The position numbers were made by a program, and so were the translations under genes. This document shows, one piece after another, positions 9,093-52,217 of a stretch of 64,000 nucleotides of DNA. The notes below the pieces were generated by a model. The model saw nothing but the letters and a program-made list of their open reading frames with translations. It was not told the DNA's origin and searched no databases. Within the stretch, counting starts at the first letter, position 1. Each line of letters begins with the position of its first letter. This DNA comes from Patellaria atrata CBS 101060 (lineage: Eukaryota), in NCBI GenBank assembly GCA_010093705.1, contig MU006109.1, forward strand, positions 62,001 to 126,000, written 5' to 3'.

Positions 9093-9628
9093 GAAAGAAT
9101 ACCATGTGGGGCTCGGCAATATTTAGATACTGTCTGAGGCAGTGAATGTGGAGGTGTAGATTTATACCATGCATGGGAGGCGTAGTCTTTTACTATCATC
9201 ATTTGACTTTCATGTGCCTTGTTACTCGCGACCTCAGTTCATCCCTGTTGAAATCATTGGTCGTGGTGATGGCTCGTTGATAGGCCAATGTTCCTTCGAG
9301 ATCCACTGGCATGACCGCCTATTTCTGATAACGAGATTTTCGTATCGCGCTTTTTCAGGGTGTATCGCTTCCAACGTCGAGATATTGCGAATACTATGGT
9401 ACATATGCATCTGCTTTACAGTCTCAAGATCCACAGGCTACCTCAAAATATGCGTTCACGATGTGGTCAAGCCTTGAAGTTGCCGTATTTGAAAAGCCAT
9501 CCGGCATCTCTGCTGCCCAAGCCGGCAAGACGCCAACAGCGATGAGTAATCGCTTAGCACTAGCGCCGTATTGCGAATATATCTTTCCGTCTCGCCGCAA
9601 CTTATTTCTCCTTTCTTTTTTCTTCTTT

Positions 9629-9889
9629 AGCTCTCTTTGCCTTTTGGTAAGCCCACCCCTACATCCCTCCCAGCTCGCTATATCTTCCTGAACCTTATAC
9701 TAATTAACCTTTTCTCAACAGGCTTAGATCAAGTGTAGTATCTGTTCTTCGAAGTTTAATCGCTTCGACACCGCTACGGCGGTACTGACGATTATGCTTA
9801 TTTTTGCAAATCGAGGAGTTGGCGCTGGGCTTGCCTATCTTTCTCCTCACCGTGTCGCTCGTATTTTACTACTTCGAGCTGACGCGAAC
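9629..9889 (+). ncRNA. U2 spliceosomal snRNA, two exons (about 9629-9646 and 9722-9889)
   Basis: Spliced 5' end AGCUCUCUUUGCCUUUUG|GCUUAGAUCAAGUGUAGUAUCUGUUCUU matches the fungal U2 5' region including the branch-recognition GUAGUA. Stem IIa TCGAAG/CTTCGA, stem IIb ACCGC-TACG-GCGGT, Sm site ATTTTTG at 9800-9806, stem III GAGGAG/CTCCTC, stem IV 9851-9886, then a T-tract. Exact termini are approximate. Confidence 0.95.
9647..9721 (+). other. Spliceosomal intron (75 nt) inside the U2 snRNA gene
   Basis: 5' site GTAAGC, branch-like TACTAAT (9698-9704), pyrimidine tract and CAG 3' site; removing it restores the contiguous conserved U2 sequence GCCTTTTGGCTTAGATC. Confidence 0.92.
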
Positions 9890-10166
9890 TTTTTTTTTCT
9901 TTCATTATGCTTCTCAGCCTGGCTGGGTGCATGAGGAAAGAACATGAGTTTGTTTATTTTGATGATTTTATGAATCGTTTTTGGAGTAACCTCTGTCATC
10001 TAGAGTACCTGCGTAGTAGCAAGGACGATTCATTCTACCTTCACTGTTAACGCTATCGATAAGCAAGAATTGGTGATTCGGAGGAACTTGGTGCGAACGC
10101 TATCTACCCCTCATACTTAGCCTCCATCAGTCGAACTGGGCTTAAGCTATAAAACCTATCCCAAAC

Positions 10167-11205
10167 TCAGGTATCCTTAGGAATCAAGTTCCGGAGGGAC
10201 AAATCATATACCACATCCTCGACTTCTTTGACCTGTGAAGCCGTACGTGTTAGTTACTAGTAGCAACCTGACCCCTTTTGATAACTCACCCGATACTTGA
10301 TCCCATCACTCCGACGTCTTAGGGCATCATTCTTCAGATTTAAGATCTGGAAGCCCGCATGTACGTCTTTAATGAACTTGCTTATCTGCAATGGTCGGGT
10401 GTAGTCACCTAAAGTGACCGAGTTTCGTGCAAGACGCGCTAACTCCTCGATCAATGTTATGAGGGCTAGCAGATACTCTTCGAGTGAGAGGTGAAAAGTA
10501 TCTTTGTTCTTGATATTGACAGGAACTGAAGGATATGTCAACATAGTACATACGAGGAGTTTATCAGTCATCATACCTCCTAAGATATTGCCAACCTCTT
10601 CGATAGTGAGAAGACGTCCGGTCTGCCTCGCTTCTGAAGAATTAGTAGATGTGAATCCGCCTAGGAAACCGGAGAGCAGGATCATGTAAGTCTTGAACAG
10701 TTAGTAAGGGATACAAAGTGCCGGAATCGGGAGGCGTTACTAGGTCCTGGATTTGATGAGACCAGACATGGTTATACTTATAGTACGGATGTCGCGACGC
10801 TGCTTCAGCAAGTTCACTGACGGTATCAATCTGGTACCTCAAGGCACCCTCTGCACCCTCAACGACATTGCAGACTAGAAACTTTGAGCCACATAGCAGA
10901 TGATGAGAACCTATGAAGCCTTACGGGAATCCGATGAAGTAGAGTGAGCTTTGGATAGAATAGCTTGGGTCGAACGTCCTAATCTCACTCATCAATAAGA
11001 TAATGGCAGCAGAGGTCGATAAATAGATTCACCTTGTTTTTCAAGGGTTTTGAGGATCTCGCGCAATTCCTAGAAGCTGTCATTGAAAGCTTTCATCTCC
11101 AAGATAAAAACATCGTATTACATCTCTGATCTCTGTATCTTGATCAATGATATCTTGCAATTGCTCAAATATGGCGGGATCTATCATCCCAGTTTGAGAG
11201 GCCAT
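10167..11205 (-). CDS. TSN1: Translin
   Basis: Multi-exon gene from MASQTGMIDPAIFEQLQDIIDQD; motifs YYKYNHVW, FHLSLEEYLLAL, LARNSVTLGDY, GFQILNLKNDALRRRSDGIKY, VEDVVYDLSLRNL; stop TGA on the minus strand at 10167-10169. Confidence 0.92.
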
Positions 11206-32330: not shown

Positions 32331-34323
32331 ATTTTACAATTGCTACTCAAATGAGCCTTCATTCTTAGATTATGGAATAATTCGGTGGAGGGTCACGAAC
32401 CTGCAGACCGTTGAAAAGGTAGCATTAGGGAAATCCAAAGATATTAGGAAAGCCGGTCAACAGCTGAAACGTAGGGAACAATCAGAAGAAATGAGGAAAT
32501 GAAAGGAAGAGGGAAAAGGACGAAAAGGAAAAAGGTCAAACGAAAAACGTGTCGAAAAATGCTTCTAAGAACAAAGATTGAAGCTCCTTTCAATGTTGGC
32601 GGTAGGGTTTAGATATGTATAGAGGTCAATCACTTGACGAAGAAGAATGGACGCGCCGACGATGCGTCATTCGCAGTGAACCTACAGTAAAATCCCGTTT
32701 CTTAGCGCCTACATCCATCTTTGAGGAAGAAGGTTATAAGAAGTATTCGATTGAATGGTGTTTGTCCTACACCGAACGAAAAAGGTACGTCTTGCAACGG
32801 GTTATTAATGGCTTGTCATTGGTTAGCTAAAATAAGTGCAGCTCGTGCAGCGCTTAAAACTTATCGTCGGGAGAACATAAACACATCTCAAAGCCCCCGA
32901 AAAGCAGCGTGTGCATCGCATCAGTTGGAATAGAAGAGACCCGCTTCATTGCGTACTGTTGCTCTGAATCGACGAAAAGTGTAGATTTTGGGGGTGGCGA
33001 GGTATGAAGCATCTCAATGTTGTTGCAATATAATACCTAGTGGAGAGAGAGGCTCAACCTCGCCGAGGTCAGGGAAGCTATTTTGAAGGTTTGCTGCGTC
33101 AGCATTCAATTGTCCAGAAGTAAAATAAAATGTTGTACGGCAGATGATTGGCAGCGACTGCAGATAGAAATGTTGGTTCTAGTATGTTGAACGTGTGGAG
33201 AGAGATGGAGGATTTTCTAGGTACTGAGAGCATTCAGATGCCTTGGTAATTTTGCTGCATTTACAAATTTCCACGTGATCTCCTACCTGAACCCCGCATT
33301 TCACGTGATGGGTAAAGTTCTTTGCCGCAAGCGGCGGGGATTCCTCGGTTCCTTGATCCTCGGAGTCCAAATCGTTGGGAATTCGAGAGGGGCCACCTCA
33401 TGCACGAGCCACCGTTGATTTTTTGACGTCCAAGCTAAGGTAAAAGGGGGTCATATCAACAGTTTATACCTTACAGTAGCTGCATCTTTGATTGATCCTT
33501 TTCTTTACTACTGAAGTACGTCTATCATAATTACTACCCTGATGACTAGCGTGAATTACCTGCTTGTGACGTTTAGGTTTGCTCTATAGCACCAAAGATA
33601 CTCTCAATCCAGCCTTTGACGTAGCATGTCGTGCATATTCAACATGAAAATATCGGTCCAGAAGGCTGCAGAGACCTCCAGATAGGTACTCTGTAGGTCC
33701 GCACTGGTACCGGATATTGAATTCGTATTGATGATAGACGTTACGGAGTGCTTCAATTCCTACCTACTCTCCCCATTCTAGCAAAACTAATACGAATTGA
33801 CCGTTTTCTTTCAAGACCCACAAAATCCCTCTCGGCAATCCAATTTCTTATCTCTACCCTCTTCTTTCGTCCCTTTGTGAAGAGTACGAGAAAATTCTTT
33901 CAAAGCTGAAGTGACAAATCCCCTTATCGTTCTCTCGGTACAAAATTCCTTCCAGACATTTTCTTTCCATTTCTAGCTGTCTATTCTTCTACCCTTCCCC
34001 ACTTACTCCCTTTCATAACCCTACCACACCTCATGCCTGCCTGCTTTACATATACCTACACTTTGTACTACTAGCTTCTCACTCGTTCCTCTCATCATCG
34101 CTCGCTTCTATCCATATCCCGCCTGGGCTCGATAAGCTTTGCCATTGCAACTCTCACCAAAGCTTTAGTATCATTACCGTTCGTTCTTTGTTAATTCCAA
34201 ATCCCGTCTTCCGCATTTGGGCGGATGTAAATTTGATATTGTCAATACACTGCTTGTAATACTTAATTGTCCCGTTTTAAGAAACTCGACCTTATACATC
34301 AATCTTTTAGCCTTTCTGAATTC

Positions 34324-37149
34324 ATGGACACTCCTCGAGAATCCGGTTATCAGGGCTCTGATCGACCATCCCCGACCAGGGAAGAAGATAATAATATCCC
34401 AGAAAGTCACTCTAGACCTAGTAATGGCCGTAAACCGCAAAAGAAACGCGTCGGGTTTACATCCGGAGACTCATCTGAACCACATAGCCGCCGCTCAACA
34501 AGTTATCCCGATATACAGATCACGGACGATGAAAGCCCACTGGATACCAGAGAGTTGACTGGAGAATTCAGTCGTGCCATGTCTGGATACTTCAATGGTT
34601 CTGATACTCCTCTGTCTGACCGCTTGCAAGATAGGACGCCATCATACCAAGAACTTTCCTCCGAGTTACACAAAATTCTTAGCCAACCTTTTGTAGCTAA
34701 GCCTAAACCGGCTATTCGAAAAACCGGATCATCTAACCATTCTCCGGCTGAGTTTGCTTATGATGGGGCTTCGTATGATTCCGCCACCGACGATGATGAT
34801 ACATACGCCGAGAAGTTACAGTCTACTCTCCGAGCGCAGGAACGAGCAAAAAAGTTAGCAGTAGATCTTGGGAGTAACTCTGAACCCTTATCTCGCAAGA
34901 ATTCGATCGAGTTGACAACCTTTCCGCCAGGGCATGGTAGCTCCGCGCACCTTATGGGTGATCGGGTCGGTCAGAGCCGCCAAGAACCCCGAAGACCGAA
35001 TGATGGGTGCTACGATTCTGAGGATGACCATTCAGGAACTGAAAAAGAATACCAAAAGCGTGTCCATGACGAAGCACGTAATCTCGTAAGGTCACATACT
35101 TGGGAACTTAATGAAGAGAATACATCCGCAGGCTTTCGTTCTGGTCAAGTAACTCCGGATGAAGAACAAAGATTTATCCATAATTATGTTCCTAAGCCAA
35201 AGAAGTATAAAGGGGGTATTCTATCGTCTCTGATGAAGTTATATGGAGCGGGTTCAGAGTCTCTACAAGTAGGCTTTGGAGGACATCTCCCAGGTAGCCG
35301 TAGTCGACGAAATAGTTTTGAGACACTAGAAACTCCCCGCGGTTCGCCACCAGAATCGGGGACTACCACACCGAGGACAAAACATTGGTATCAACGAAGC
35401 TCTGATCGTCCATCTTCAGTTTCATCCCTTGCACAGCTTGTGGGGTCATCATCAACCCTGGCCGGTACTGCTGGTAAAGAATTCAGTGAAGATGTTACCG
35501 ATAAACTCCGAAAGTACGGCCGACAGGCAATGACTAAGCGCCCGAAGTCTAGCTCAAAGCAGAAAAAAGCACGACTAGAGGATGAAATCAAAATTACCGT
35601 ACATATCGCTGAGATTATCTCACGTCAAAAGTACCTAGTGAGACTCTGCCGAGCACTGATGCAGTATGGAGCACCGACACATCGGCTAGAAGAGTACATG
35701 AAAATGTCTGCTAGAGTACTCGAGATTGAGAGCCAATTCCTTTATATCCCTGGCTGTATGATCATATCTTTTGACGATTCATCGACGCATACGACCGATA
35801 TTAGGCTTATCCGAACACCTCAAGGTATAGATCTCGGAAAGCTACGAGACACTCATGAGATTTATAAAGAAGTTGTTCACGACATAATAGGTGTCGAAGA
35901 AGCGACGCAACGACTCAAGAGCGTTATGGACAGACCACCTAAGCATAAGCCATGGAAATTGATCCCCATATACGGTCTTGCGTCCCTGGCTGTCGGTCCT
36001 TTTGCGTTTCAGGCTAGACCAATTGATCTTCCAATTTCTTTCTTCCTAGGGTGCCTTCTCGGTATTATGCAGCTTATTTTAGCTCCCAGGTCTGATTTAT
36101 ATTCCAACGTCTTTGAGATCTCCGCAGCAGTTATAACGTCTTTTTTAGCCCGCGCTTTTGGTTCTATTGAGTTACATGGTGAACCTCTGTTTTGCTTTTC
36201 CGCTTTAGCGCAATCAAGCATTGCCCTCATTCTCCCCGGATATACCGTACTCTGTGCAAGTTTGGAATTGCAATCTCGCTCCATCGTAGCTGGTTCCGTA
36301 CGCATGGTTTACGCTATTATCTATTCCCTGTTCCTAGGTTTTGGCATAACTATTGGTACCACTATATATGGTATTATGGACCACAAGGCGACATCAGCAA
36401 CGACTTGTACCGATTCGATGTCTTCTGGCTGGTACTTTCTGTTCGTTCCGGTATTTACCCTCTGCCTTATTATCATAAACCAAGGAAAGTGGAAACAGGT
36501 TCCTGTGATGATGTTTATCGCCTTTACTGGCTATATCGTCAACTTTTTCTCATCGAAGCGCTTTCCGGGGAACACACAAATCAGCAACACGCTTGGTGCG
36601 CTCGCTATAGGTACGATGGCGAACCTCTACTCCCGGCTAGGACGTCATGTAGACAACTGGTGGATGGATATATGGGAACACCATATTGAACCAAGCTTAA
36701 AGCGTGTTAAAAACGTCTTCCGCTCAAAAACACAAATTTCTCACGAACGTCGTGAATCCAAACGTTCAGCTTCGTCCGGTGCTTCTAGTCCAACTTTGAC
36801 GAATGAAACTTACTCCCCTAATATTCCTCGTTCTCGAAAGGTCGGCTACGGACTCGCTGCTGCGGCCATGCTTCCTGCCATATTTGTCCAGGTTCCGTCT
36901 GGTTTAGCAGTCAGTGGATCCTTAGTTAGCGGTATCACATCTGCGGATCAAATTACACGAAATGTAACTGGGACTACGGTAGTAACCAGTGGAAATGATA
37001 TGGTGGCGAATGCAAGAATAAACAGTGTAGCGTTCACTGTCGGATTCAGCGTCATTCAAGTTGCTATCGGCATCACTGTGGGGCTATTCTTGAGCGCTCT
37101 TCTTGTTTATCCATTTGGAAAGAAGCGAAGTGGACTCTTTAGCTTTTGA
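34324..37149 (+). CDS. PRM10: Pheromone-regulated membrane protein 10 (ThrE family exporter)
   Basis: First ATG at 34324 (the ORF-track start is TTG); LCRALMQYGAPTHRLEEY, QFLYIPGCMIISFDD, ILPGY...SLELQSRSIVAGSVR, PAIFVQVPSG, C-terminal YPFGKKRSGLFSF. Confidence 0.9.
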   Translation: MDTPRESGYQGSDRPSPTREEDNNIPESHSRPSNGRKPQKKRVGFTSGDSSEPHSRRSTSYPDIQITDDESPLDTRELTGEFSRAMSGYFNGSDTPLSDRLQDRTPSYQELSSELHKILSQPFVAKPKPAIRKTGSSNHSPAEFAYDGASYDSATDDDDTYAEKLQSTLRAQERAKKLAVDLGSNSEPLSRKNSIELTTFPPGHGSSAHLMGDRVGQSRQEPRRPNDGCYDSEDDHSGTEKEYQKRVHDEARNLVRSHTWELNEENTSAGFRSGQVTPDEEQRFIHNYVPKPKKYKGGILSSLMKLYGAGSESLQVGFGGHLPGSRSRRNSFETLETPRGSPPESGTTTPRTKHWYQRSSDRPSSVSSLAQLVGSSSTLAGTAGKEFSEDVTDKLRKYGRQAMTKRPKSSSKQKKARLEDEIKITVHIAEIISRQKYLVRLCRALMQYGAPTHRLEEYMKMSARVLEIESQFLYIPGCMIISFDDSSTHTTDIRLIRTPQGIDLGKLRDTHEIYKEVVHDIIGVEEATQRLKSVMDRPPKHKPWKLIPIYGLASLAVGPFAFQARPIDLPISFFLGCLLGIMQLILAPRSDLYSNVFEISAAVITSFLARAFGSIELHGEPLFCFSALAQSSIALILPGYTVLCASLELQSRSIVAGSVRMVYAIIYSLFLGFGITIGTTIYGIMDHKATSATTCTDSMSSGWYFLFVPVFTLCLIIINQGKWKQVPVMMFIAFTGYIVNFFSSKRFPGNTQISNTLGALAIGTMANLYSRLGRHVDNWWMDIWEHHIEPSLKRVKNVFRSKTQISHERRESKRSASSGASSPTLTNETYSPNIPRSRKVGYGLAAAAMLPAIFVQVPSGLAVSGSLVSGITSADQITRNVTGTTVVTSGNDMVANARINSVAFTVGFSVIQVAIGITVGLFLSALLVYPFGKKRSGLFSF

Positions 37150-37362
37150 TCTGAGGTTTCCGTCGTTTTGATGTTTATAGACAAAGTTTTTTCTGTAGGG
37201 AGTTGATATTTCCCTCCACTGTTAATAGCTATAAACGTGCTCCTCTATTTCAATGGGATGCATGGTTTAACACCCGAGGGGTGGTACCTTATGTCACGCG
37301 TTGCCGCAGGGTGTTGGAAACTGAGCAATTTCACCAATTAAAAGTTACAACTAAAAAATCTT

Positions 37363-39390
37363 TCAAGTGCTAATCTGACACTGAGCAGTAGCAATAACCG
37401 ACTCGGCCGACTCCGATATCACTGTCAGTTCGACAGTAGCAGCTTGCGTAGCATTAGTCGTAGCAGCGACAGCGACGATAGCAACAGCGAAACCACCGAA
37501 TTCAACTGCAACGAGATCATTAGGTAACTCGACACGCCAACCTTCCTCGCTCGTTTGCGCACTGAGTCGGTATACGTCTGACTTGAGGTATCTCGATAGA
37601 TCTTGCGGATGCTGCCCACCAGCAACATAAGACCCGGTATTCGTCAGTTGGAAAACGCACGCGGTGCTCCTTTCCCTCAATGTGGTATTATACCCAGGTG
37701 CTACCTTTCCTTGGGACAGTTCTACACCGTGCTTACTCGAGCCGCTCCCGTCTAGTGACCGGACCGCAACCGTGTAGGACAGCATACCCATCTCATCACG
37801 GTGCTTCTCAATGACGTAGAGATGCAATCTATTCGCCTCGTCCACATATTCAAACTCGCTTCCTGATCGTGTCCCGGCGTGGAAAAGCGCATCAGCCAAC
37901 TGTCGATAATCTCCTAACGTGATCATCGCCACCGTTCCGTCAGGTCGGTAAAAGTCAATAAGCTCGATATCCTGAGGGTTTGCGTCGATGGTCCATTGGA
38001 ACGGTGCCGGCGCCCTTCCGGCATCTTTTGACTTGCTGATCATGACACCTGAGTCTGGCGTGAAACTATCAGCGCCCATACGATCAACTACCTCCAACAT
38101 GTAGCTGTTGAAACCACCACCGTCGCAAAAGACATCGCTACTGATATTGCACCGTGGTGAACGGTCCGTGTCCATCAGGACCCGGATTCCTAGTAAGCCT
38201 TCTGGACCAGGATCTACGGCCCGCGCCGTCAGTCGCGCAACGACGACTCCCGAGTCCGCTAATGCCTCTCGTGAAACCCGCAACACACTTTCGTTTGACG
38301 CCAGTCCGAGCTGCAATTTATCCCGCACTGTATGTAATGACCCCAGGGACCCCCCTTGCACCGCCGGAATCTGCCACCGCGTATGCGGACCACCCGGGCC
38401 ATTAAAGGAGCCTCTCGACATCATGGACCATGGCCCCGTGTACGATCGTCTTAGGGGCACACCATACGGGTTATTGTAATTATCCCCGATATCAAGTAAA
38501 TGGCTAAGTTCATGGGCATAGACACCCATACCTGAGCTCTCCGCCTGGGTCGACGACCCACCTCCGGCATTCGGCCATATCGTCGCCGCGGCTGCCCACG
38601 AAGTCCAGTCCACATATCTTGTACGGGCGTAATTAGTGTCATTGTTTATGCCCGGTTGCTTCGGGGGTCCAAACGCATCTGGCACCGCTTCTTTCGTCTG
38701 GAACTTCATCTCGCCGAACTCCTGCCATGTTGAGGACTCGTCTTGGCCTGCGGACAGAATGAAAACGAGCTCGTACGCGTCGGCTGAGGCATTGCCGATG
38801 TCAGCCCGCCAGGCGTTTATGGCATCGGTCCGGATGTTCAGGTTGCATCGGAAGCCGGTGACACATTCGCCTGGGTTCATGTCTTGGCTGATGCCGTACT
38901 GGAAGGATTGTGCGGGCATCTTGTATGGCCCAAAGGCCGTGAGATCAACCCCGAAACGGCCTCCTGAGTCCCCCATCCAGTACTCATGTAGGGTGTGTCC
39001 CCTATTTATCGAGGATGGTGTGTTTAAAAGGTCACGGTAGAATTCCGAGACGTCCGCGCGGGTGAGGTTCGAAGCGATAGGTTGCGGGTTCCCGAAGATA
39101 GTAGAGTTTGGCGGTTTCGTGATGGTGAAAGTCACGTCCGGGTAGTCCAGGACGAGCAGTGCGATGTTGAAGTTGCGAAGCCTACCCCGTTTAGATGGGT
39201 TGGACCAGTCAGTAGAGGGGATAGGAACGTAATCGGCCCAAGTCATTGCCGCGGGATCGACCCAGTTTTGAGGATCCAGGACCGCGAAGGGGTCGGTAGG
39301 GGCGGAGACGGGGAAGGTAGAGGTGAGAATAGGGAGGAGAGATAGGGCTGTTAGGAAGACCCAGAGGTCTCTAATACGTAGACCTTTCAT
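37363..39390 (-). CDS. Secreted M6-family (immune inhibitor A-like) zinc metalloprotease
   Basis: Signal peptide; zinc motif AHELSHLLDIGDNY followed by GPWSMMSRGSFNG (Met-turn-like); intronless, 675 aa. Confidence 0.85.
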   Translation of the reverse strand: MKGLRIRDLWVFLTALSLLPILTSTFPVSAPTDPFAVLDPQNWVDPAAMTWADYVPIPSTDWSNPSKRGRLRNFNIALLVLDYPDVTFTITKPPNSTIFGNPQPIASNLTRADVSEFYRDLLNTPSSINRGHTLHEYWMGDSGGRFGVDLTAFGPYKMPAQSFQYGISQDMNPGECVTGFRCNLNIRTDAINAWRADIGNASADAYELVFILSAGQDESSTWQEFGEMKFQTKEAVPDAFGPPKQPGINNDTNYARTRYVDWTSWAAAATIWPNAGGGSSTQAESSGMGVYAHELSHLLDIGDNYNNPYGVPLRRSYTGPWSMMSRGSFNGPGGPHTRWQIPAVQGGSLGSLHTVRDKLQLGLASNESVLRVSREALADSGVVVARLTARAVDPGPEGLLGIRVLMDTDRSPRCNISSDVFCDGGGFNSYMLEVVDRMGADSFTPDSGVMISKSKDAGRAPAPFQWTIDANPQDIELIDFYRPDGTVAMITLGDYRQLADALFHAGTRSGSEFEYVDEANRLHLYVIEKHRDEMGMLSYTVAVRSLDGSGSSKHGVELSQGKVAPGYNTTLRERSTACVFQLTNTGSYVAGGQHPQDLSRYLKSDVYRLSAQTSEEGWRVELPNDLVAVEFGGFAVAIVAVAATTNATQAATVELTVISESAESVIATAQCQIST

Positions 39391-40924
39391 CCTGTTCCTT
39401 CAATCTCAATTGAAAGTTTCTAGCTGGGTACAGTATAGTATGGAATATCACTCCCCCCTCTATTATCCACGCTCACTTCCTGCGCCGGCCAATATCACAA
39501 GAAAGAACTTCGTCAACGAGCGAGCGTAGCTTAACAGCTCCATCACATATGCTGGTGGGAGAGTCCGTTTCTAAATACAAGTCTGCCCCCCCTCCTCCCC
39601 CAACCCCCCGTACCACAAACGGCGGGGCCGCACAATAGCAGGTACAAGAGGTATATATTGGCAAACTTTTCTCCGCATGCCAAGCTGCGCGTTCCCCTGT
39701 CCCGCATCATCGTTGATAGCTTAAGGTGCTACCACCTGCTAGAACGGGTTTGGAACGTCGTTTTGTGTGTAGATAACCGTTATTGAAGGCGTACCAGAGC
39801 ACCGATGCTTGTCGACGTATGACGAATTGATATGGTACAAGAGGTGAGGTATCTTTAAGCGAGGGAGATGAGTTAATGTAGGTTAGATACGGTTTGTGCG
39901 GGTCGTGATTATGTAAGCAGAGCTTTTCTTGACGACATGGGAGTTGATGGGTGTCATCAGGGTATGTCTTCGACAATGTTCATCATTTACTTTTGCTGGG
40001 GAATATCCTCATTTGCAATGGTTCTTGCAGCTTACCAACAGTACGAAGCACTACTTCTACGGAGGTAATTATAGGCAAACTCTTTTCCACTCTCACATTG
40101 AAGACTAAGGGGGCCTCCCCTTCCCCATAGTCGCTTCTCCTGCGCTTGGCGATAACGCTCTTTTAGTCCTGATGAGACCAAGAATAGCTTCTTTCAAACC
40201 GTTGTGTGCATATGGAATGTAGAATTATGATTGTTGTTTGAAGAAGTTACAGATCTAGGTCAAGGTACTTAAATAATAGTGCGATTGCAGCGAAAGAGAC
40301 CATATAAATCACACGGCCCAGCTAAATCATGGACTTTACTAGACCAGGGTATTTCTCACACGAACCCAGATTATGCACCGTGACCGACCGATCATGTAGC
40401 AAAGACTATAACCTGCGAGCGCTATCTCCCTGGGCGCATGGAGCTTGTCAGTGAGGTATAAAACGCAAAGCTTCCTTTATATCTATCTTTCTTCCATATC
40501 AATTTGAAAAATATTCCCCTTCTCCGCGATCAGGTCGATACAATTGTTGTCTGCTTCAGAACTGGAATCAATATTGAGGAAGAGTATACTCTGTGCAACC
40601 AGCAATTCTCACATCATTGGTAGTGAGGTATATCATGACTACAAGATGGAGACTGCGGTCATCATTCCTTCCTCCTTAAATAGACATGTTACTGGATTAT
40701 AATTGTGAGAATACCAACTATGTCGGATAGACTCCTGTACTGCTTCCGCTGCTTCATTCCTTGGGTTAGAAACGAGTCCGAGTCCCTCAAAACCCTGGAA
40801 TTGCGGTAATACTCCGACCACCAAGAAAAGAAATGCTGAGGTTGACGAGCAATACCGGGTGAGGTTTGTCAAGGCTCAACCTCAGATGGAAGCTGAAAGG
40901 TATATTGCTACATATACATGAAGC

Positions 40925-41109
40925 TTAAACTTAAGGAAAGAAAGTAAAAGAGAGTATTAGAACAGCGTGAGCTGTTCTATTAAAGTACAACATGACTAAG
41001 CTACTGGATCATGCATGGAGATTAAACTTAAGGAAAGAAAGTAAGAGAAAGTGCCAGAACAGCGTAAGTTGTTCTATTAAAGTATAGCATAGCTAAGCCG
41101 CTGGATCAT
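40925..41109. repeat. Direct tandem duplication, two 88-bp copies (40925-41012 and 41022-41109)
   Basis: Ungapped manual alignment gives 75/88 identity; all 13 differences are C/T or G/A. Confidence 0.92.
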
Positions 41110-43132
41110 CCAAGGCACTTATACCTATCGGGTCTAACCCGTGACAAGGTTGATCACGATCATTACTGAAGAACTGCATAGACATAAGGAACCATCCTCT
41201 GCTGCTAAAAGAAAAACGCCACAATTGAGAACCTCCTTTTTCAACGAAGACTTAGGCGACAATTTCACGTTGAGAATACTTACATAGAGAAGTCCGATCT
41301 CTCAACAATGAGCGGGGAATCGCTGGTGTTAGGTTTCCCTTCACCCGGACGTACATTTTGAGGAAGATCGAGAGAAGGAGGCTTCTAGTTGAGGGGATTT
41401 ATACCCCTTTTCCCCACAGTCTGTAGAGGTCGGCGGACAGTCACAGTTGACTGTCCTGTGTCATCCCCCTGGCGTGCCATAGTATAAGTGGGTCTCGTCA
41501 TAACTCCGTTTTCCACACCGCTTTTTCAGGATGCATTCAAGATATGGTATTTATTAAGTCCTTTCTCTTCACTTTTGGTACATCTTTTCAGTATTGTGTG
41601 AAGCTTAATTATTGACATGGGTATCATCTCGCGGATCTTGTGTTCGAATGGAAGATTAAAATTGCCGTAAGTCGCCATAATCTTCGAAAGAGCGCAAAAG
41701 AAAAGTAATAAATCCTGCGAGCTAACCAGTAGAGATATGTCACATCTTCGATACAACACAGTCTTCCATTAAACTCGGGGTTTCCCTGGTTGTATGACAG
41801 AGCTTCATATATCTTAGGTGAGATTCGGACATCGTCTTATGATGAAACCTAGGTATCCATGTGATGCACTTACCAAGTTCCATGAAGATGATGAAGAGCA
41901 TTGCCAGCTCTAGAGAGTCCCTTTGCCACAGATCTCAGAGTACAAGAAAATATGCGATAATCTCGAACATGACTAGCAAAAGCTGAAGAGGATCACCATA
42001 TTAAATCATTTACGAGCCCTTTTACAGACACAATACAACAGAGCAATGGCTTCAAAGCCCCTTGAGAGTGGCCGAACACAAAGCACACAGATGGTCAAGG
42101 TCTCGGCTATCTGAAGATGAGTAACAGAAGTTTTCTTTTGTCATCCCATCCCTAGACCTCTATGCGTCTATATCAACAAAGATTTATGTTGATGCTAGAT
42201 TTAAGAGCGACGGCAGAACTTATATTCCCTTATTCCTTGGCCCACGAATAGGAAGTGCTGAGCTGTATGCTCAGGAGAACCGGTCACTGGGCTGCTTCTC
42301 CTGCACATAGCGTCAGACCAACGGTACCATGATTCGATCCGCTGATCTTTCCCTGTGTCGTGCATTCAAGTAGATAAGGGGAGGCTGTCATTAAGGTCTT
42401 CTCTTATCCACTTACTACAATCATTCGAATCCACAGTCCCCTCTCGAAAATGGTATGATTGATTTAAAGTACGAGGAAGGTCGGGAATTAACGGGATCGT
42501 CTTGTTCCTCAACCACAGATACAAGATAATGGGTTCAATCCAGGGATCCTGCCCGAAGGAAGCTAAAATACATTATTATATTATTATAGAGCAGAATCCT
42601 ATGATTTGTGACCGGGAGCAAGGAGATGTAATGACACTGATGAATAACTTTCGCTTGTGATAATAATGCTCTTAGACTAGCGTGGATGGTATGTACCATC
42701 ATCGCGAAGTGTGAATTAACATGGAAAGAAAATTCGGATTGGTAGGACTGATCTGGGATTTGCTCGCTCGAAGGACGAACACCGGATTTTGAGAATAGGA
42801 GCAGATAAACATTTGAAAATTGTCCCCGACCAAAATCCACCCTTAGCAAACAGTATTGAATTTTGTGCATTGACGGATCCATAAGGATGTGGAACATTGT
42901 GGGTTTATATAATCTTGGATTAGCCGTTGATCGGGCAGGTCACGGTGGACAATTGCATGACTATCTAGACGTCAGTAGCATGATGTGATCTGGTGCTATT
43001 TTATGATGCATTCTGTCACTTGGGGCTATGTCTCCGTGACTGAAAGATCCATCCACCAGCTAAAGGTATTCGCACCCGAATTGTAATTGACTTGCTCATT
43101 TTCCATTGACCTTGAAACTCGACACTACCACA

Positions 43133-46100
43133 TCACCTCCTTCCCCTTCCTCCCCAACCCCTCCTCCACTCATACATCACGACCGCAGCTGCAGTTTGCA
43201 CATTCAAGCTCCTTGTGATACCCCACTGCCTAACTTCAACACAGATATTGCACTCTGCCAGTATCTTCCCCGGTATCCCCTCCTTTTCACTTCCCATGAT
43301 TAGAACACATCTCTTCGGAATTTTGCACTCTCCTATGTTATCCTTGTTCCCGTCTCCGAGTATGATTGACCTATCCGTCTGCTCCACACCAACGACGGTG
43401 TAACCCTCACGCTTCCTCTCTACAATCCAGTTTACTAGTACTTCTGGCGAGAGCTCTTGAATTGTAAGGTGCAGATGACTAGATACACTGACAGTGGTGA
43501 AGACTTGATTGGTTAGAATTGTCAGATTAGGGACCTGCAATGAGCTGGCCCCGAAAATTTCAGCTGCCCGGGATAGACCACCAAGATTTGGCGGTGAAGA
43601 GATGAGCGAAGCGACTAACAGGAGAGACGGTTGGTCACTTGAGGACGGATCAGACGGTTTAGATAGCGGATCGTGGTAGACTGCTCCTTTGGTCTGGAGG
43701 AATGTCGCATCTACTGGGTCAACCCTTGCGGTAGAGTCATCGTGGGCCGAGGGCATCCTTTTTGCAATAGTAGTGCTATCATCCAGAAATGGAAGCCCAA
43801 CAGGTGGACGACCTAGTTCCATGCGAGGAGGAGGTAACGAATCAAATCCTATACTCCTATCATTCGCATAGACGGCTTCAAAGTCGGCAGTCGTAGTGAG
43901 AGGAGCTTCTCGGGGATCGATCGTGAGATATGCACCCTGGAACAGATTGGCCAGTGTGTGACCACTCACTGGATTGAGCCTCTCTAGCATTCGAGGAGCT
44001 GGAATATTCATATGCTTCTCTAGTGCTTTCAGTTGTGTATACAACGCTTCAAATGCAGTATTTCCAACCACCTTGTTCCAACCCATTCGGATAGCGTGCT
44101 CCCATACCGGAGGAACGCTCCACTGAGCTTCGTGGCGAACCATAATCTTTGGACTCGCCGATAAAGCGACTAGACAGGTCATGAGTGCATCTGTATATTC
44201 TTCCGTGGAGTTGGGAAGAAGCGCGATCGTCGTCGCCATTTTCATCACTGATGCTAGAAATTTTGGATGTGCATGATCCGTTGTGGACAACTCTTTTAAT
44301 ATTCCCTTCCCTACATCCTTGGAATGGAGACTCAAGCGCGCGATAGCCCACTCCAATAAATACCTATGTCTAGGCAGTGACTCAATGAAAATAAAATTCT
44401 TGAACATGCTAAAGTACCGCAAGACATCCTGAGGATTATTCTTGACTATCGGTTCCAGAAGGAGTAGTAAAACTTGGAGCTGGGAAGTATGCTTAGACTT
44501 GGAAAATACAGGAGGAGGTATCTTCTGACTAATCCAAAAGGTCAATACTGAATCCATGATACTCTGTAACAAGTCAACATCAGTTGATCTGATCCGGTTG
44601 ATGAGATCCATAAGACATGCGAAACCGAATTGCTCTGGAAGACCGTAGTACGAATCATAAGAGATGTTTGGGACAAATTCTTGAACCTTCTGTGCAATGG
44701 TAGCCTCGAGCAAGAACTCTGGTTTTGGAGATGGAGGATTGTTGGTGAAGTGCCCAATTATCCTTTCGAAAGGTATGTATTCGACAGATGATGGAGAGGT
44801 ACAGTATGCGATACGTAGGGCTTGTATGAGGGGTGAGAATGCATATATTCTGCCTTGACAGAGTTGGCTGATATATAGAGCGGAAGATGAAAGAAGGGAT
44901 GCCAACTCTGAACTCTGCCCGCATAGCACAATGCATTTTGGATGGAATAACACCTCCGGTATAGCTACTAAAGCAGCTTTCATATAGTCCTGGATTTCCA
45001 ACTCGTTCCAGAGAGCATCAAGAGCTTTGAAAAGCTGTTCAGGAGCCAAGTCTTCTTCGGTATCAAGTATTTCTCTAATATGTTTGATTCCTGAAACTAA
45101 TCCAGAGCCACTTAAACATTTGTATTTCGTAATATCTAGCTTTTCAAGGAAATGCTTGAGGGTTTTCTCTCTACTCTCATCCTGATCTTGTCGAGTGCCG
45201 GAAGATCTGAGGTTTTCATACCGGGATGAAAGCAATTGAAGGCCCCGGGGCAGTTTGGAATCTTGTACCGTCTTCAGATCAATATTTTTACAGAGTATTG
45301 CAGCATAACTAGTAAAAATATCCTGTTGCAGGTCCGAGATATGAGTGGTTGCTGGAATTTTAACGAGCATCTCTGCTTCAGCAGCGCTAAGACAAGGTAG
45401 TCTCTTGGATAGTGCTGATGCTAAACCATGTAATATGAAGGCCATAGCAGGGGGAAACATATAACCACGTTTACTGTCTATATACGCTATGATACTTGAG
45501 ACATATGACTGCGTAGTCCTGTCATCTTGTAGATCCGATACTAGAGAGTTGAAATATCGTGTTAATCTCTCGCCGTGCTTGCAGATCAATGATCCATTAT
45601 GTTTGCGAGTGCTATAGATAAAAAGGTGCCCCTGAGTGGCCCATGGGAGTAAGTGCGTTAGTAGAAAATCCAAGTAACTTGCGTGTGATCCAAGAGGAGG
45701 TTCAGCTAAATCCATATACCATGAAATGACCATTTTTCGAACATTATCTTGCATTCCCGGTCGAAATAATGAGGCAAAAAGGGTTATGATCCACGTCTCG
45801 TGTAGCTTCGACTGTGACCGCATCAAAGCCTGTAAACCTGGGAGACTTTCCTCGACTTGATTGATGTATCGACCTACAGCAATGATCTCGACAAGAGTGC
45901 CGTACTGTTCATATTGTTGGATGTACTCATCTTTCTCTTCATTGATAAATTTCAAATGTGAAGTGCTTATATCATACTTCAATAACTTTATAGAAAGCTT
46001 AAGGATCTGAACGCAGAACTTCCGTTGTTCGTATGATCCATATCGCACTCCATCTTGAATGAGTGTCCAGTATTGATCGTTTGCAAAGTATTCTCTGGTG

Positions 46101-46928
46101 GGGAGATACTCTGCGGGCAAGGCCAGCCACATCATCCAAAGGTTATAGCCCATCAAAGAATCCTTCGACTGTGACAATTGGCTTACCGTAGTCCATACTA
46201 TGGAGTTTAGTGAGCGAGGCTCGAACGATATCAGGACATTGTTTCGATGGGCAGGACTCGAAACGCATGAGCGAATACATGCGAAAGATGCGGCGATGGC
46301 CTCTCGAGCCTCTTGCTGTTCCATACCAGAAGAGAGCGGTAAGAAGAGGATAAGAGCGAATAGTATGCTGTTATACACCTTACTCCCCAAGTCCGGCCGA
46401 GACCAGAAGAAATGCTTCAACCATCTCACATATGCCAAACAACGAGAAAGAGGAACCCCGAGACCAAGTTTCGGTAGCTCATTCGAGTTTTGAGATGAGG
46501 AAATTATAGCGACATCCTCTTCAAACCGTTTACTCACAATAGAGAACACATTTAACCCGAACTCCCCATAGGTCCTACATATATCAAGTGATGCTCGAAC
46601 GTCTTCAAGCTTTGTGATAGAACTATCTAAGCAAGATACGAGTTTTCCAGAAAGAAAGACTATAGCATCAGCCTATATAAGGAATTAGAATAGGTATAGG
46701 GTAGCATAAGTTATGTGTCGTACCTTGCTGGCCATTGCTCGACATGATTATACTTACATCTGGATATCTTTGGAGCAGCTCAAGTGCAAATCGAGTAGTG
46801 CTCAGAATCTCGGGGATATTCTGTAACTTTTCGATACTAGTCGCTATATCTCTAATTGCATCCGATCTGCTTGAGGCAGGAATGTGCGTGAGGAATGCCT
46901 CGACGAGCACCTGTGTTGATGACTCCAT
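43133..46928 (-). CDS. TRM3: tRNA (guanosine-18 2'-O)-methyltransferase, SpoU family
   Basis: Exon 1 MESSTQVLVEAF..., one intron at about 46661-46723, long helical N-terminal region, C-terminal SPOUT motifs NLGGLSRAAEIFG, IMGSEKEGIP, GITRSLNVQTAAAVVMYEW. Confidence 0.9.
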
Positions 46929-47315
46929 CCTCGACGGCTGATACAACCTCTATCGCCTCTAAATCAAAAATGAATAATCACAGTATGGATTTCTTTCCCT
47001 TTTTCAAACTAAGGTATTCAAGGAGATTTATGAATGATGTTGCTGGCTCTCTGCATGTCGTCCGAAATAGGGCGATCTGGTATCCCTCTTCGCTTAACGG
47101 AAAATTGTCGGCCTCAACCTCAGCGCTCGCTGACTCGCGCAGTCCCAAAACGGCAAAACATAAACATTGGCATTGTGTCTCCGTGCACTGCGCTTACCTC
47201 ACCGGTCTCCGTGCCCTGTCGCTCGTTTCGAATGTACTATCATCAGCGACAACAGTATCACGAAACTATCTCTACCTGTGAAAAGCTTTTTGTTCAGTAC
47301 GCTTGGATACCCACC

Positions 47316-49199
47316 ATGTATCGGGGTCTGTCTCACGACAACCACCATTTCGAAAGCAGCGCTTCGGCACCATCGATGCGCGCGAGCGGATATATCGACC
47401 CAGCGACATCGATGGGAGATGCGCAGGATGAGGCGGGAAATATCAAGGTAGTGGTGAGGTGTAGGGCGTTCGTACAGCGAGGTTGGTAGCTACAATACCA
47501 ATATTAAGTTGTATATCTGCTGAGTGACTTTCGGATTGTAGAAAAAGACCGCAATGCAGATTGTCTGATACGTATGGACCCAGACACACAAATGACAACC
47601 CTATTTCCACCCGTCCCCGATTCTCGTCACAATGCTCGAGGCAAAATCTACGAAGAGAAGTCTTTCACATTTGACAAGTCGTTCTGGTCGCACGACACCC
47701 ACGACGAACACTATGCGACTCAGGAAGCTGTCTACCACTCGTTTGGTGAAGAATTCCTCGACCATAACTTCGACGGTTACCATACTTGTATTTTTGCCTA
47801 CGGTCAGACGGGAAGCGGGAAGTCATACACCATGATGGGCACACCAGACAATCCAGGACTCATCCCAAGGACCTGCGAAGCTCTCTTCTCCCGTATTGAG
47901 GACGAACCCTCGCCAAACACCACATACAACGTGCACGTATCTTACTTCGAAGTATACAACGAGCACGTTCGAGATCTCCTAGTCCCTCGAACCGACCCCC
48001 CATATTACCTCAAGATTCGCGAATCTACGACCGATGGTGTGTACGTGCAGGGTCTAACTGATCAGCCCGTTCGTAGTTACAAAGATGTTACTCGCTTAAT
48101 GCGCATGGGCGATGTAAACCGTACGACTGCGGCAACCAAGATGAACGACACTTCTTCTCGCTCACATGCAGTCTTCACAATCATGCTGAAGCAAATCCAG
48201 CATGACCTTCTCTCTGATGAAACCATCGAACGTTGCGCCCGCATGCGTCTCGTCGATCTCGCTGGCTCAGAACGTCCTAAATCGACTGAAGCTACGGGCG
48301 CTCGCCTGGCTGAAGGGGGCAAAATCAACAAATCCCTTTCCACTCTCGGTCGTGTCATTGCCGCGCTGGCCGACCCTGCACGACAAACTCCCGGCCGCAG
48401 CCGCAAGCCCAAAGAAGTCGTCCCATACCGAGACTCCGTGCTTACCTGGCTTTTGAAAGATAGCCTAGGCGGGAACTCCAAAACCGCAATGGTGGCCTGC
48501 ATCTCGCCAACCGACTACGACGAGACTCTCTCCACACTGCGGTACGCCGACCAAGCTAAACGCATCCGCACCCGCGCTACCGTCAACCAAGACGCCATCA
48601 CGACTGCCGAGCGCGACGCGCAGATCTCTGCAATGGCAGAACAGATACGCCTGCTGCAGACTTCTATGACAGCGGCGAGCGTGCGGCGGAGGGAAGAGGC
48701 GACCGAGCTCGAAGATTACCAGAAGCAGGTTGAGAAGATGCAGCGACTGATGGAAGAAACCAAAATGGTGTCCGAGAGTAAGATACGCGGTCTGACAGCC
48801 GAGGTGGAGGAACTGGCGCCGGAGTGCTTGCGACTCAGGGACGAGAACGAGGCGCTGAGACGGCATTTAGCGCTTGTGGTAGGCGAGTTGAGGAATCCGA
48901 TAAGATTGCCTGAGATGGCGAAGCCATTTGATCTGGAGAGCTTGGATCTGGATTCGGAGGCTGGGAGTTTGAGCGAGAAGGATGATGAGAGGAGCGGAGA
49001 GGACGAGATGGAAGGAAAAAAGAGCCCTCATCCGGCTATTGTGGACGAGGATGAGACTGAGGAGTCGGCGATCGATGTACAAGAGGAGGCGCGTCGCTTG
49101 CTTGACGAGCTAGGAACCTTGCGCATAAAGATGAAAGATGACTATGGGCGATTTAGCGCCGGGACAGAGGCCAAGACTCCACTAAGGGAAGGACGGTGA
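47316..49199 (+). CDS. Short fungal kinesin-3 (UncB/NcKin3-like)
   Basis: CACCATG start; NIKVVVRCR, intron at about 47482-47541; FDKSFWSH, P-loop GQTGSGKS, NDTSSRSH, DLAGSER, VPYRDSVLTWLLKDSLGGNSKT; short coiled-coil tail with no recognisable FHA or PH domain. Confidence 0.88.
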
Positions 49200-49461
49200 A
49201 CGGACTGAGCGACGGTGTGTAATGATGTGATGAGCAGGAGACCAACTCGTATTTGTAGGTATTGATACGCATGGCGCGGCGTTCTGGCTGTGCTTTCTTG
49301 GATATTATGGCAGCTCTGGCCATATCACAGATGGTGAGCAGATTATGTTATAATCGTCTTGTTGCCAAGATAATAATTGTGAATGGTCGGATATGAAACA
49401 CGTGAAATATCAGGTTATCGAGTATATTAATAATACTCCGGGAAAGGATAGCTACACTACC

Positions 49462-52217
49462 TTACCCTCTCCTACCCTTGGCCAACTCCCTGATCATAGC
49501 ATCAATTTCATGCACTGTCGTCCCAGTAGCCTTCTGCTTCAGCTCTGCCAGGGAATTCATATCCTTTGCCTTGAGCGCTTCCTCACCAGCTTTGACCAAC
49601 TGTCCACATTTAACCCACATTTCTATGCGGTCGGTGACAGGAAGATTCGAGCACTTGGGTATGAATACCGCCGCGGTACGCGGATTGCCAGCAGAAAGAC
49701 ATTCGTTGAAGAAAGGCTATGGGTAAGTTAGTATTGTTGCAAATAGTTCATAAGGAAAGACTTTGGGAGAAATATAAGTGAACAATACGTACCTCCCACC
49801 CAATAGGACTCTTACGATGTTTCGCAACCTCTTCCAACTCAGACCAATCCCTCTTCGCCACCAGCGCCCTGAGCCTCGTCCACCAGAACGTCCTATCAGA
49901 GACCTTAAACTCTGACTGCACCTTAAGCGCACGTTTATTATTGCCCGTTCTGATGAGTTTGAAGATCATCTCGTTAACCGAGAGTCCCGAGAATCCGGTT
50001 CCAAGATCCTTTTCAAACCCATCTTGCATCTTGATAAGGCGCTGGCTCTCATCCATCGCTTTCAAGACGTTCACATTCTCCTTGGAATCGGCGAGCAGTT
50101 TGTAGGCAGATTTGAGCTTGTCAATGCGGGTCAGAGGGTCTTCTTGGTCTAGAGCTTCTGCTACGAGAAGGTTTGCACCGTCTAGCCTTCGGTCATCTTG
50201 GTAGTACAAATCTTTAAGTAAGCCCCTATCTTGGGACATAGCCGAAGACTCCACTAAAGCAGTGGCTACCGGACGTGTGTTGATAGTACGAAAGAAGCTG
50301 GCCAGTGGAAGTTTCTTCCTAAGCTCGAGAAGAACATAGTAGACCAGGTCAGTATCCCCACTTTCAATAGCCTTATCAAGCGCGATTGTGTCTTCTTTCA
50401 TATCCAGAAGTAAAGGAACCTGCTTTCCAGCCCGAGGTTCGTAATTCAGTAATTCGGTGGCCAGTGTAGCTCTCCCTTCATCGTAGGCAGCTTTAGCAAT
50501 CTGCTCGAAGGAGACACCGCGTTTACCGTCGAGCCGTTTCACGATAAGTCTGCATATGCTTTCTTCATCCTCTGTTGAGACACGGACCTTTTGACTCGCC
50601 CAGTGCACATAAACTCTATCAGTAGGAAGGCGGAGATAATCCGATACACGTAGTGCCAGTAGGTACTCATGTCTATTGATCAGTCTTTCGATCAGTCTTT
50701 CCGGTGTGAGACGGATATATTGTTCGTATGATAAAGGTAAGCCAATCTCATTGAAGCGTACAGCGTTGAGAACACGAAGAGTCTCGGTCATATCGACGAA
50801 ATCATCGCTATTATAGAGATCCAACACCGATTTACCGAAGGATGCCGCCTTCAGGAGCTGTTTCTGGACCGCGATATTGAATTCGTGTCCAGCAGCTTTG
50901 ACACATGCATCAACAGCTTCATCCAGGGTTGAGCGGATCATCTGTATATTCTCATCTGCTTTAGGTGATTTCTGCTCGAGCTGTTCTATGGCGTCGACTA
51001 GGACAGCTGCTGGTGACGTGGAGCCAAACTTGAACGTATTTTCGGTCACATCTAATATATTTAAAATAGTCCACGACATCTCGTGCAGCAGTCACTTACC
51101 TGGAACTCTCTGTAGAAACTCACACAGATTATTAGTGAGTAGGCGAATGCCATCGATATCAGCCAATAGATGAACAGCACCGTTGTAGAAGTATTGATTG
51201 GCGGCACCATTTGGGCCTACGAGGTGTACTTCATCTTCCCACGCCAGCGCAACAGCATCATTTCCGCACCATTCCATATGGTTTGGTACTGTCTTCGCGC
51301 GAGAGTTATATTCACTGAGGCGATCCTGAAAATCACTACTGACCACCCACACCTTGCCGTCATCTGTGTATAGAGCCACATATTTCCCGTTGGGAGACAC
51401 ACCGATGTGCCTGAATGGACCCTGCTGTAAACCTTGATCTAGCGAGTCCGATGCATCTACGACGTGTATTGTTTGTCCAATTGCTAACAAAACTTCTACT
51501 GAACGTGAGAGTGTGTATGCCGGTGGAATTAGATTCCATGAGGAGACTGGTCCTTCGGGGGGTATAGCGAGAAGCTTTGGACGAGGTTCGTCGTATTTCG
51601 TAACAGATATCAGGTTATTGTTTCCCAGGAGAGCAACGAAACCAGTAGACCAGAATCGGCATGATTGGACTCCATGTTCTTGAGCACCCTGAACAACTAT
51701 TAGAAAAGGTGGATGATTGCGGTAGAGAGGATAGCATACATGACCCAATGTAAAAGGTGTGAAGTCGCCTTGCAGATCGTAGTAGCAGCGGACCGTACCG
51801 TCTGCAGTCACGACAAGTAGCTTCTCGTCTTCTGACCACCCTAGTGCTTTTATCTTCCCTCTATCCCACTATATAGTTGTCAGATTCCGAGCCATAATAT
51901 AAACATTTGCGAGACAGTACATCTATTCTCCTTATAAGCTTCCCCGCGCAGCTGTAGATGTCTATACTGGATTTGGCAGCCTGAGTACCGCGATAAACAT
52001 GTATCTTGTCCTCATCGCGATATATTGCTAGATACTCATTAGTACTTCAAGCTAGAACTCGTAGGCAGGATTGCATACCTACAGCACCACTGTATGGAGC
52101 TCCCTCAACGATGTAGTTCTCCAGCTCCAGATCTTGGTCGAAGACATCTTGATAGATCTTTACCTTGCGGTAGAAGCGACCACCGACCTTCTCCCAATCT
52201 GCAGTGGGCTTAGACAT
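49462..52217 (-). CDS. VPS16: Vacuolar protein sorting 16 (HOPS/CORVET subunit)
   Basis: MSKPTADWEKVG...FYRK...GAPYSGA; about 5 introns; WCGND, LLKAASFGK, LRVLNAVR, AIESGDTDL, KSPIGWE|PFF; stop TAA 49462-49464. Confidence 0.93.

Follow-up and report, generated by a model that had tools for sequence, protein, structure and literature searches.

Within the 64-kb window of Patellaria atrata DNA (i.e. the whole stretch that was analysed), the sole Rfam match is to U2 snRNA (RF00004), at positions 9707-9893 of the forward strand, with a score of 116.6 bits versus a gathering score of 46, an E value of 6.2e-23 and model positions 1-192 covered. The conserved 5' end of U2, which is 18 nt long, is found at 9629-9646, and the rest of the RNA at 9722-9893, 75 nt downstream. 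The 17-mer of the first part (exon 1, AGCTCTCTTTGCCTTTTG) occurs once in the window, where 0.01 occurrences are expected by chance; the second part (exon 2) opens with GCTTAGATCAAGTGTAGTATCTGTTCTT. The contiguous form of the conserved 5' end (GCCUUUUGGCU...) is absent from the window DNA, continuity being restored upon removal of 9647-9721. The Rfam search, which the first-pass annotation of this DNA had proposed as a check, confirms the gene but places the first 20 model positions wrongly, at 9707-9726, on the 3' end of the intron, so that automatic annotation would misassign the 5' end of the gene and overlook the intron. The features of the locus are as follows:

9576-9582, forward strand: TATA-like AATATAT, at -53 to -47 with respect to the presumed start; putative promoter element
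9605-9628, forward strand: pure pyrimidine tract of 24 nt, abutting the presumed start A9629
9629-9646, forward strand: U2 exon 1, 18 nt, with the helix II strand and the 5' strand and loop of stem I; A9629 is the putative start
9647-9721, forward strand: GT-AG intron, 75 nt, identified by its sequence signals and skipped exactly in a paralogue
9647-9652, forward strand: 5' splice site GTAAGC, at the intron start
9653-9665, forward strand: intron element CCACCCCTACATC (+7 to +19), conserved with respect to groups A and B of the metagenome loci described below
9698-9704, forward strand: branch site TACTAAT, with branch A9703 at 18 nt from the intron 3' end
9719-9721, forward strand: 3' splice site CAG, at the intron end
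9722-9893, forward strand: U2 exon 2, 172 nt, from Rfam alignment, fold and covariation
9722-9724, forward strand: GCT, helix Ib strand, the first 3 nt of exon 2
9735-9740, forward strand: GTAGTA, branch-site recognition sequence, in exon 2
9749-9768, forward strand: stem IIa, from Rfam alignment and fold
9770-9783, forward strand: stem IIb, from Rfam alignment and fold
9800-9806, forward strand: Sm site ATTTTTG, followed by stem III and the 3' stem-loop
9890-9898, forward strand: run of nine T, at and after the 3' end of the U2 match; possible role in 3' end formation

Exon 2 is predicted to fold with an energy of -56.4 kcal/mol (z -3.86). Elsewhere in the window, a Prm10/ThrE-like protein is encoded at 34267-37149, the best named relatives of which are all from Dothideomycetes, at no more than 70% identity, and a CFEM-domain protein is also encoded. 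The host thus belongs to Pezizomycotina and is Dothideomycetes-like, with no close sequenced relative among the matches to the Prm10/ThrE-like protein.

The insert has the properties of an mRNA-type intron, namely a 5' splice site of the GURNGY form, a CURAY branch site located 10-40 nt from the end, a terminal YAG and a length typical of fungi. Three cuts fit the U2 sequence equally well, and only 9646|9722 yields GT..AG. The description of the locus as a U2 snRNA gene interrupted by an mRNA-type intron beside the helix Ib strand, which had been proposed without database searches, is therefore upheld in both its parts: a gene scored at 116.6 bits contains GTAAGC, TACTAAT and CAG, and the split is read directly at G|GCU, 13 nt upstream of GUAGUA, where the 75-nt insert lies. 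The GCT at the start of exon 2 is, from what is established on U2/U6 helix I, the partner of the U6 AGC triad in helix Ib, and the split would presumably correspond to G20|G21 in yeast U2 numbering; on the U6 side, helix Ia/Ib spans nt 55-61. Exact removal of 9647-9721 gives the joined sequence found in the intronless U2 of Aspergillus, Fusarium and Chaetomium and in the paralogue, in all of which the exon-1 18-mer is contiguous with GCTTAGATCAAG. A transposon or a self-splicing intron was also considered, and is excluded by the length of these introns (53-75 nt, including those from the metagenomes), by the GT-AG ends along with the branch site, and by the lack of any coding capacity. The insert would be a U2-type GT-AG spliceosomal intron, the splicing of which we infer from these signals.

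Copies of the U2 gene were sought by comparing the region 9300-10200 with the contigs of two probable-DNA runs, both from one sample, at a likeness of at least 80%, copies less similar to the window than this escaping the comparison. One 12,367-nt contig from the P. atrata DNA runs reproduces the window U2 with its intron. A second U2 locus is present on contig X1 (4078 nt), at a depth of 331.8 when the window's own contigs are at 313-316, and also on contig X2 (2950 nt), at a depth of 472.2 when the window's own contig is at 442.5. In X1, 9618-9645/6 runs directly into 9721/2-9865, with 20 differences in 145 nt and unlike sequence beyond; X2 begins at the junction and covers 9721-9865 only, with the same 20 letters. 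When taken as GT..AG, the join is exactly 9646|9722, and upstream of it the second locus is identical to the window from 9618 on, including the end of the pyrimidine tract. The equal depth, the kilobases of unrelated flanking sequence and the 20 differences identify this locus as a genomic paralogue and not a cDNA. Three pairs in stems IIa/IIb, as assigned by the fold, differ between window and paralogue on both sides in a compensated manner (9751 G>T with 9766 C>A; 9771 C>T with 9782 G>A; 9772 C>G with 9781 G>C), which indicates that both copies evolved under the constraint of U2 structure. Most simply, the paralogue would have lost the intron. A 55-nt unitig of X2 (window 9619-9748, depth 15.4) has the 9645/9721 join as well, and differs at two letters in its exon 1 part; it could represent an error bubble, a third variant of U2 or a sequence from another organism.

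The counting of other U2 copies, which had been listed among the possible checks, has thus brought out an intronless gene joined at 9646|9722 in the contigs of the same genome. Since this paralogue is found at about single-copy depth, the supply of U2 does not depend on the window intron, and the earlier supposition that U2 would be needed to mature its own precursor is not supported in that form for this fungus, where this precursor need not be the only source of U2. The idea of a feedback loop is weakened here, and is still conceivable for lineages like group A, in which all copies seen bear the intron.

The presence of an intronless copy at single-copy depth also lends itself to a different explanation, namely that the insert has inactivated the window U2, or that the gene is silent, and that the paralogue supplies all mature U2. 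In keeping with this, stem IIa and the 3' stem-loop of the window copy differ from those usual in Pezizomycotina U2; in the 3' stem-loop the window copy is the more deviant of the two genes, the 3' part of the paralogue beyond the match looking more canonical. However, all the deviations of stem IIa are compensated, three of its pairs having changed on both sides with respect to the consensus while still pairing (UA to CG, UA to GC and CG to AU), double-sided changes are seen in 9/23 alifold pairs across the aligned set, and the GUAGUA box, the Sm site, the GCU and all the stems are intact. The window copy could also be a minor U2 variant.

Loci from other fungi bear directly on this issue. 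Metagenome contigs were scanned with a pattern made of the two exon ends around GT, 25-55 nt, CTRAY, 3-33 nt and AG, so that GT, CTRAY and AG are present in all matches by construction. One such scan yielded 23 U2 loci, distributed over 19 contigs, in which the intron occupies the nucleotide position seen in the window. The introns are 53-59 nt long, and there are 20 distinct sequences among the 23 loci. Of the 20 loci scanned with Rfam (L008, L013 and L022 being omitted as duplicates of L017 and L002), each gave a single U2 match, with scores of 83.9-134.4 bits. The loci fall in at least six lineages other than that of the window:

Group A: L003, L004, L005, L007, L009, L011, L012, L014, L015 and L023; four on a 117.9-kb contig and two on a 12-kb contig
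Group B: L001, L006, L016, L019 and L020; upstream block in common with group A
Group C: L008, L017 and L018; beside a spermidine synthase gene
Group D: L002, L013 and L022; seemingly three U2 introns
Group E: L010; single locus
Group F: L021; single locus, Agaricomycete-like

When the 23 loci and the window are considered together for features that lie outside the scan pattern, G is found at +5 in 24/24, a pyrimidine precedes the AG in 24/24, and the branch A lies 11 nt from the 3' end in 19/24 and 12 nt from it in 3 more (i.e. 22/24). The exon-1 18-mer is identical in 19/23 metagenome loci, and exon 2 shows no variation over its first 28 nt in the 14 aligned copies (six near-duplicates, the decayed L014 and the three group D copies, with their extra insert, being left out of the alignment). 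Between groups, identity is 0.68-0.86 for exon 2 and 0.53-0.67 for the intron, the latter being about the level of unrelated short sequences in global alignment; within a four-copy array of group A, the corresponding values are 0.94-0.98 and 0.74-0.86. Fixed ends, a free interior and constrained exons make up the pattern of a spliced intron.

The four-copy array just mentioned (L003, L004, L005 and L007, at 33169-51949 of the 117,856-nt contig) consists of U2 genes in the same orientation, spaced by 3.6-8 kb over about 19 kb, and 4/4 of the U2 copies found on this contig carry the intron. Such an arrangement is hard to reconcile with a dead insert, as is the retention of this site by six or more other lineages, in which the signals are intact although the interior diverges. 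Decay of intron-bearing copies does nevertheless occur, as illustrated by L014 (1545-1732), which has lost an internal segment in the region of stem III and scores lowest with Rfam (83.9 bits), and which is probably a decaying copy, accompanied by the intact L015 on the same contig. On the whole, a disrupted or silent window copy appears unlikely. The reading that we favour, with a probability of about 0.72, is that the window copy is a working U2 gene with an old intron, which would be spliced out at G9646/G9722; the intron itself is real and old, and probably functional.

Group D presents an apparently more elaborate organization. In L002 (1435-1644, reverse strand; also L013 and L022), the U2 gene seemingly has three introns: a first one of 59 nt with GC-AG ends (1586-1644), after only 5 nt (AGCTC) of RNA, the same-site intron of 53 nt (1520-1572), and a third one of 57 nt (1435-1491), directly after ...GTAGTATCTGTTCTT. 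When joined, the four exon pieces match the opening 66 nt of groups A and C at 65/66 positions.

With respect to the host lineages, the flanking protein of group D has its best named relatives (73-76%) all among Teratosphaeriaceae-like Dothideomycetes, and the spermidine synthase of group C finds its best named matches in Teloschistales lichens (91-92%), its strong conservation giving poor resolution at the class level. For groups A, B and E (L010), the term Pezizomycotina-like is based on the U2 5' end alone; the ORFs flanking groups A and B gave zero Pfam matches, and one of them, tried as a taxon marker, gave weak bacterial clusters in the Atlas, at 0.78, and is probably not a gene. Exon 1 and the 3' region of L021 match the U2 prediction of Coprinus cinereus (Lopez 2008 supplement) and are of the Agaricomycete type. 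In this locus (808-1053), the intron at the same nucleotide is 58 nt long and an epoxide-hydrolase-like ORF is found downstream. The U2 predictions of the same supplement are intronless at G|GCU in Aspergillus, Coccidioides, Ascosphaera, Chaetomium and Fusarium/Gibberella, and six stem IIb motifs of the metagenome loci gave 0 matches in it, both comparisons being made without Neurospora, Magnaporthe, Sclerotinia and Phaeosphaeria. With intron-bearing and intronless U2 genes found among these fungi, the distribution of the intron is patchy across Pezizomycotina, and reaches Basidiomycota.

Upstream of the gene, several elements recur. In groups A, B and D, TATATAAA is found 44-50 nt before the AGCTC start, and a pyrimidine tract followed by (C/T)AGCTCTC is present in 20/23 metagenome loci, the tract preceding the split AGCTC in group D and being absent in L021. 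Pyrimidine tract and start are also seen in the U2 predictions of Aspergillus, Fusarium and Chaetomium (Lopez 2008 supplement). The window geometry, with AATATAT and a pyrimidine tract, is as in the other groups and suggests a promoter role. Groups A and B also have in common an upstream block, about 45-100 nt before the U2 start, of the form CCCTAAA...GAGCGGCCAAAA...TCTTGGCAC...CTATATAAA (L001, L003-L007, L009, L011, L012, L014-L016, L019, L020 and L023), which may be a fungal snRNA promoter element. The block was not found before the window U2, where only the TATA-like AATATAT is seen.

The likeness between the window and groups A and B extends into the intron, in that a C-rich 13-nt element, CCACC[A/C]C[A/T]AC[A/T]TC, lies behind the 5' splice site in all three. 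The window element (9653-9665) is identical to that of group B at 12/13 positions and to that of group A at 10/13, the first 19 nt of the intron being nearly alike in the window and group B, and the remaining intron is not alignable. Such likeness implies common ancestry or constraint, and places the intron before the genome's two U2 copies. A more elaborate possibility is that the output of the window gene is set by splicing efficiency, the gene acting as an autoregulatory sensor of splicing capacity with +7 to +19 as the control site. The occurrence of two diverged U2 copies, one with and one without the intron, would suit such a role, as would the conservation of the element between the window and groups A and B while other intron sequence diverges, and an equivalent idea is raised for intron-bearing U6 paralogues in the available text of a 2018 review (PMC5855946). 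However, groups C, D and E lack the element (3-5/13 identical), and in 13 predicted precursor folds it is mostly unpaired, with no consistent partner; apart from a small GCC-UUUU-GG(U) hairpin located at the 5' splice site, these folds showed no common helix. Furthermore, C-rich motifs of the CCACC type are also abundant in the core promoters of groups A and B, so that the element may be a DNA-level promoter feature or a trace of shared ancestry. A regulated U2 variant of this kind is, in our view, improbable, even more so than a disrupted copy.

If the window copy is indeed a working gene with an old intron, as we favour, RNA polymerase II would start transcription near A9629 and produce a precursor in which the capped first exon is 18 nt long. 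Spliceosomes that contain previously matured U2 would then remove 9647-9721 co-transcriptionally in the nucleus, and G9646 would be joined to G9722, with restoration of the universal ...GCCUUUUG|GCUUAGAUCAAGUGUAGUA... sequence. Stem I and U2/U6 helix Ib could form only after removal of the intron, as in the precursor 75 nt would separate the helix Ib strand and the 3' strand of stem I from their partners. The usual snRNP maturation would follow.

The intron gain that the first-pass annotation had suggested would not be a local one, as the site is occupied in 23 loci from at least six other lineages and the +7 to +19 element is 12/13 identical to that of group B. The sharing of the site with these lineages, along with the near identity of the first 19 nt to group B, indicates that the intron is old. 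It would have been kept in several Pezizomycotina lineages and in one Agaricomycete-like fungus, and lost, or never present, in other fungi and in the paralogue. As to its origin, the position beside the GCU strand fits reverse splicing into the RNA of the catalytic core, and its sharing across lineages is compatible with a single old event followed by losses and, equally, with recurrent hits. The basidiomycete intron may descend from this same old one, or may represent a second, separate hit on this nucleotide.

Introns in the genes of spliceosomal RNAs gave the first hint that U6 and U2 are at the catalytic centre, and that splicing is reversible. Across helix Ib, the intron site of S. pombe U6 is presumably located opposite that of the window U2, at the same end of the helix. 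The U2 intron of Rhodotorula hasegawae is said to lie just downstream of the branch-site recognition sequence, i.e. about where the third intron of group D is found, whereas the window intron is 13 nt upstream of GUAGUA. The R. hasegawae intron is likewise a GT-AG intron in the conserved 5' region of a fungal U2 (Takahashi 1993, via PMC5855946), and is taken in that review as support for reverse splicing into spliceosomal RNAs, an idea that is set out there for U6 introns. R. hasegawae is a basidiomycete yeast, and in the available parts of PMC5855946 and PMC2396436 no cross-lineage conservation is described for its site, in contrast with that of the window U2. The S. pombe U6 intron (Tani and Ohshima 1989; PMC5855946) is also of the mRNA type and lies immediately beside the catalytic AGC triad, the window intron adjoining the GCU that is the partner of this triad in helix Ib. 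The S. pombe U6 is, however, a sole-copy gene transcribed by polymerase III, whereas the window U2 would be transcribed by polymerase II, and has an 18-nt first exon and an intronless paralogue. As in the set described here, fungal U6 introns have canonical signals and interiors that are not conserved, with up to four introns per gene (Canzler et al. 2016, via the available text of PMC5855946). Fungal U3 snoRNA genes (Myslinski 1990; Canzler et al. 2017, PMC5832005) offer a further parallel, with spliceosomal introns in independently transcribed, often multicopy genes for a capped small RNA; U3, unlike U2, is not a component of the spliceosome.

An intron at G|GCU of U2 was not found reported in full-text searches of the literature, a scope outside which lie Takahashi 1993 and Canzler 2016, so that a prior report is possible; with this proviso, the earlier statement that the position was not known in a Pezizomycotina U2 is borne out. 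Within the available text of the 2018 U6 review (PMC5855946), Takahashi 1993 is the sole case of a U2 intron that is cited, and the position is not reported in the available text or in supplement 1 of PMC2396436, the Lopez figure that marks introns being outside this comparison. Thus, mRNA-type introns in snRNA genes were already known, and what is apparently new is the G|GCU position in U2 and its conservation across lineages. According to the part of PMC5832005 considered here, frequent interruption is known, among small structured RNAs, for U3 and U6 only, and the present set suggests that U2 may belong with them.

In a broader and distinctly tentative picture, splicing of the U2 precursor would be a regular and hitherto unreported step of spliceosome biogenesis in much of the filamentous fungi, with G|GCU as an ancient or recurrent site that mirrors the S. 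pombe U6 intron, some lineages bearing three introns in the first 50 nt of U2 (one of them leaving a 5-nt exon), and the +7 to +19 element tuning U2 output to splicing capacity. At a practical level, annotation with covariance models misplaces the 5' end of intron-bearing U2 genes, as seen here with Rfam. For the biology of these fungi, a U2 intron that adjoins the partner strand of the U6 AGC triad, and that many of them have at one and the same position, provides a second data point, for the U2 strand of helix Ib, and a natural set of sequences that bears on whether such introns mark hot spots or are relics, on how an 18-nt (or 5-nt) capped first exon may be spliced, and on whether the spliceosome may be regulated in fungi through the splicing of the U2 precursor.
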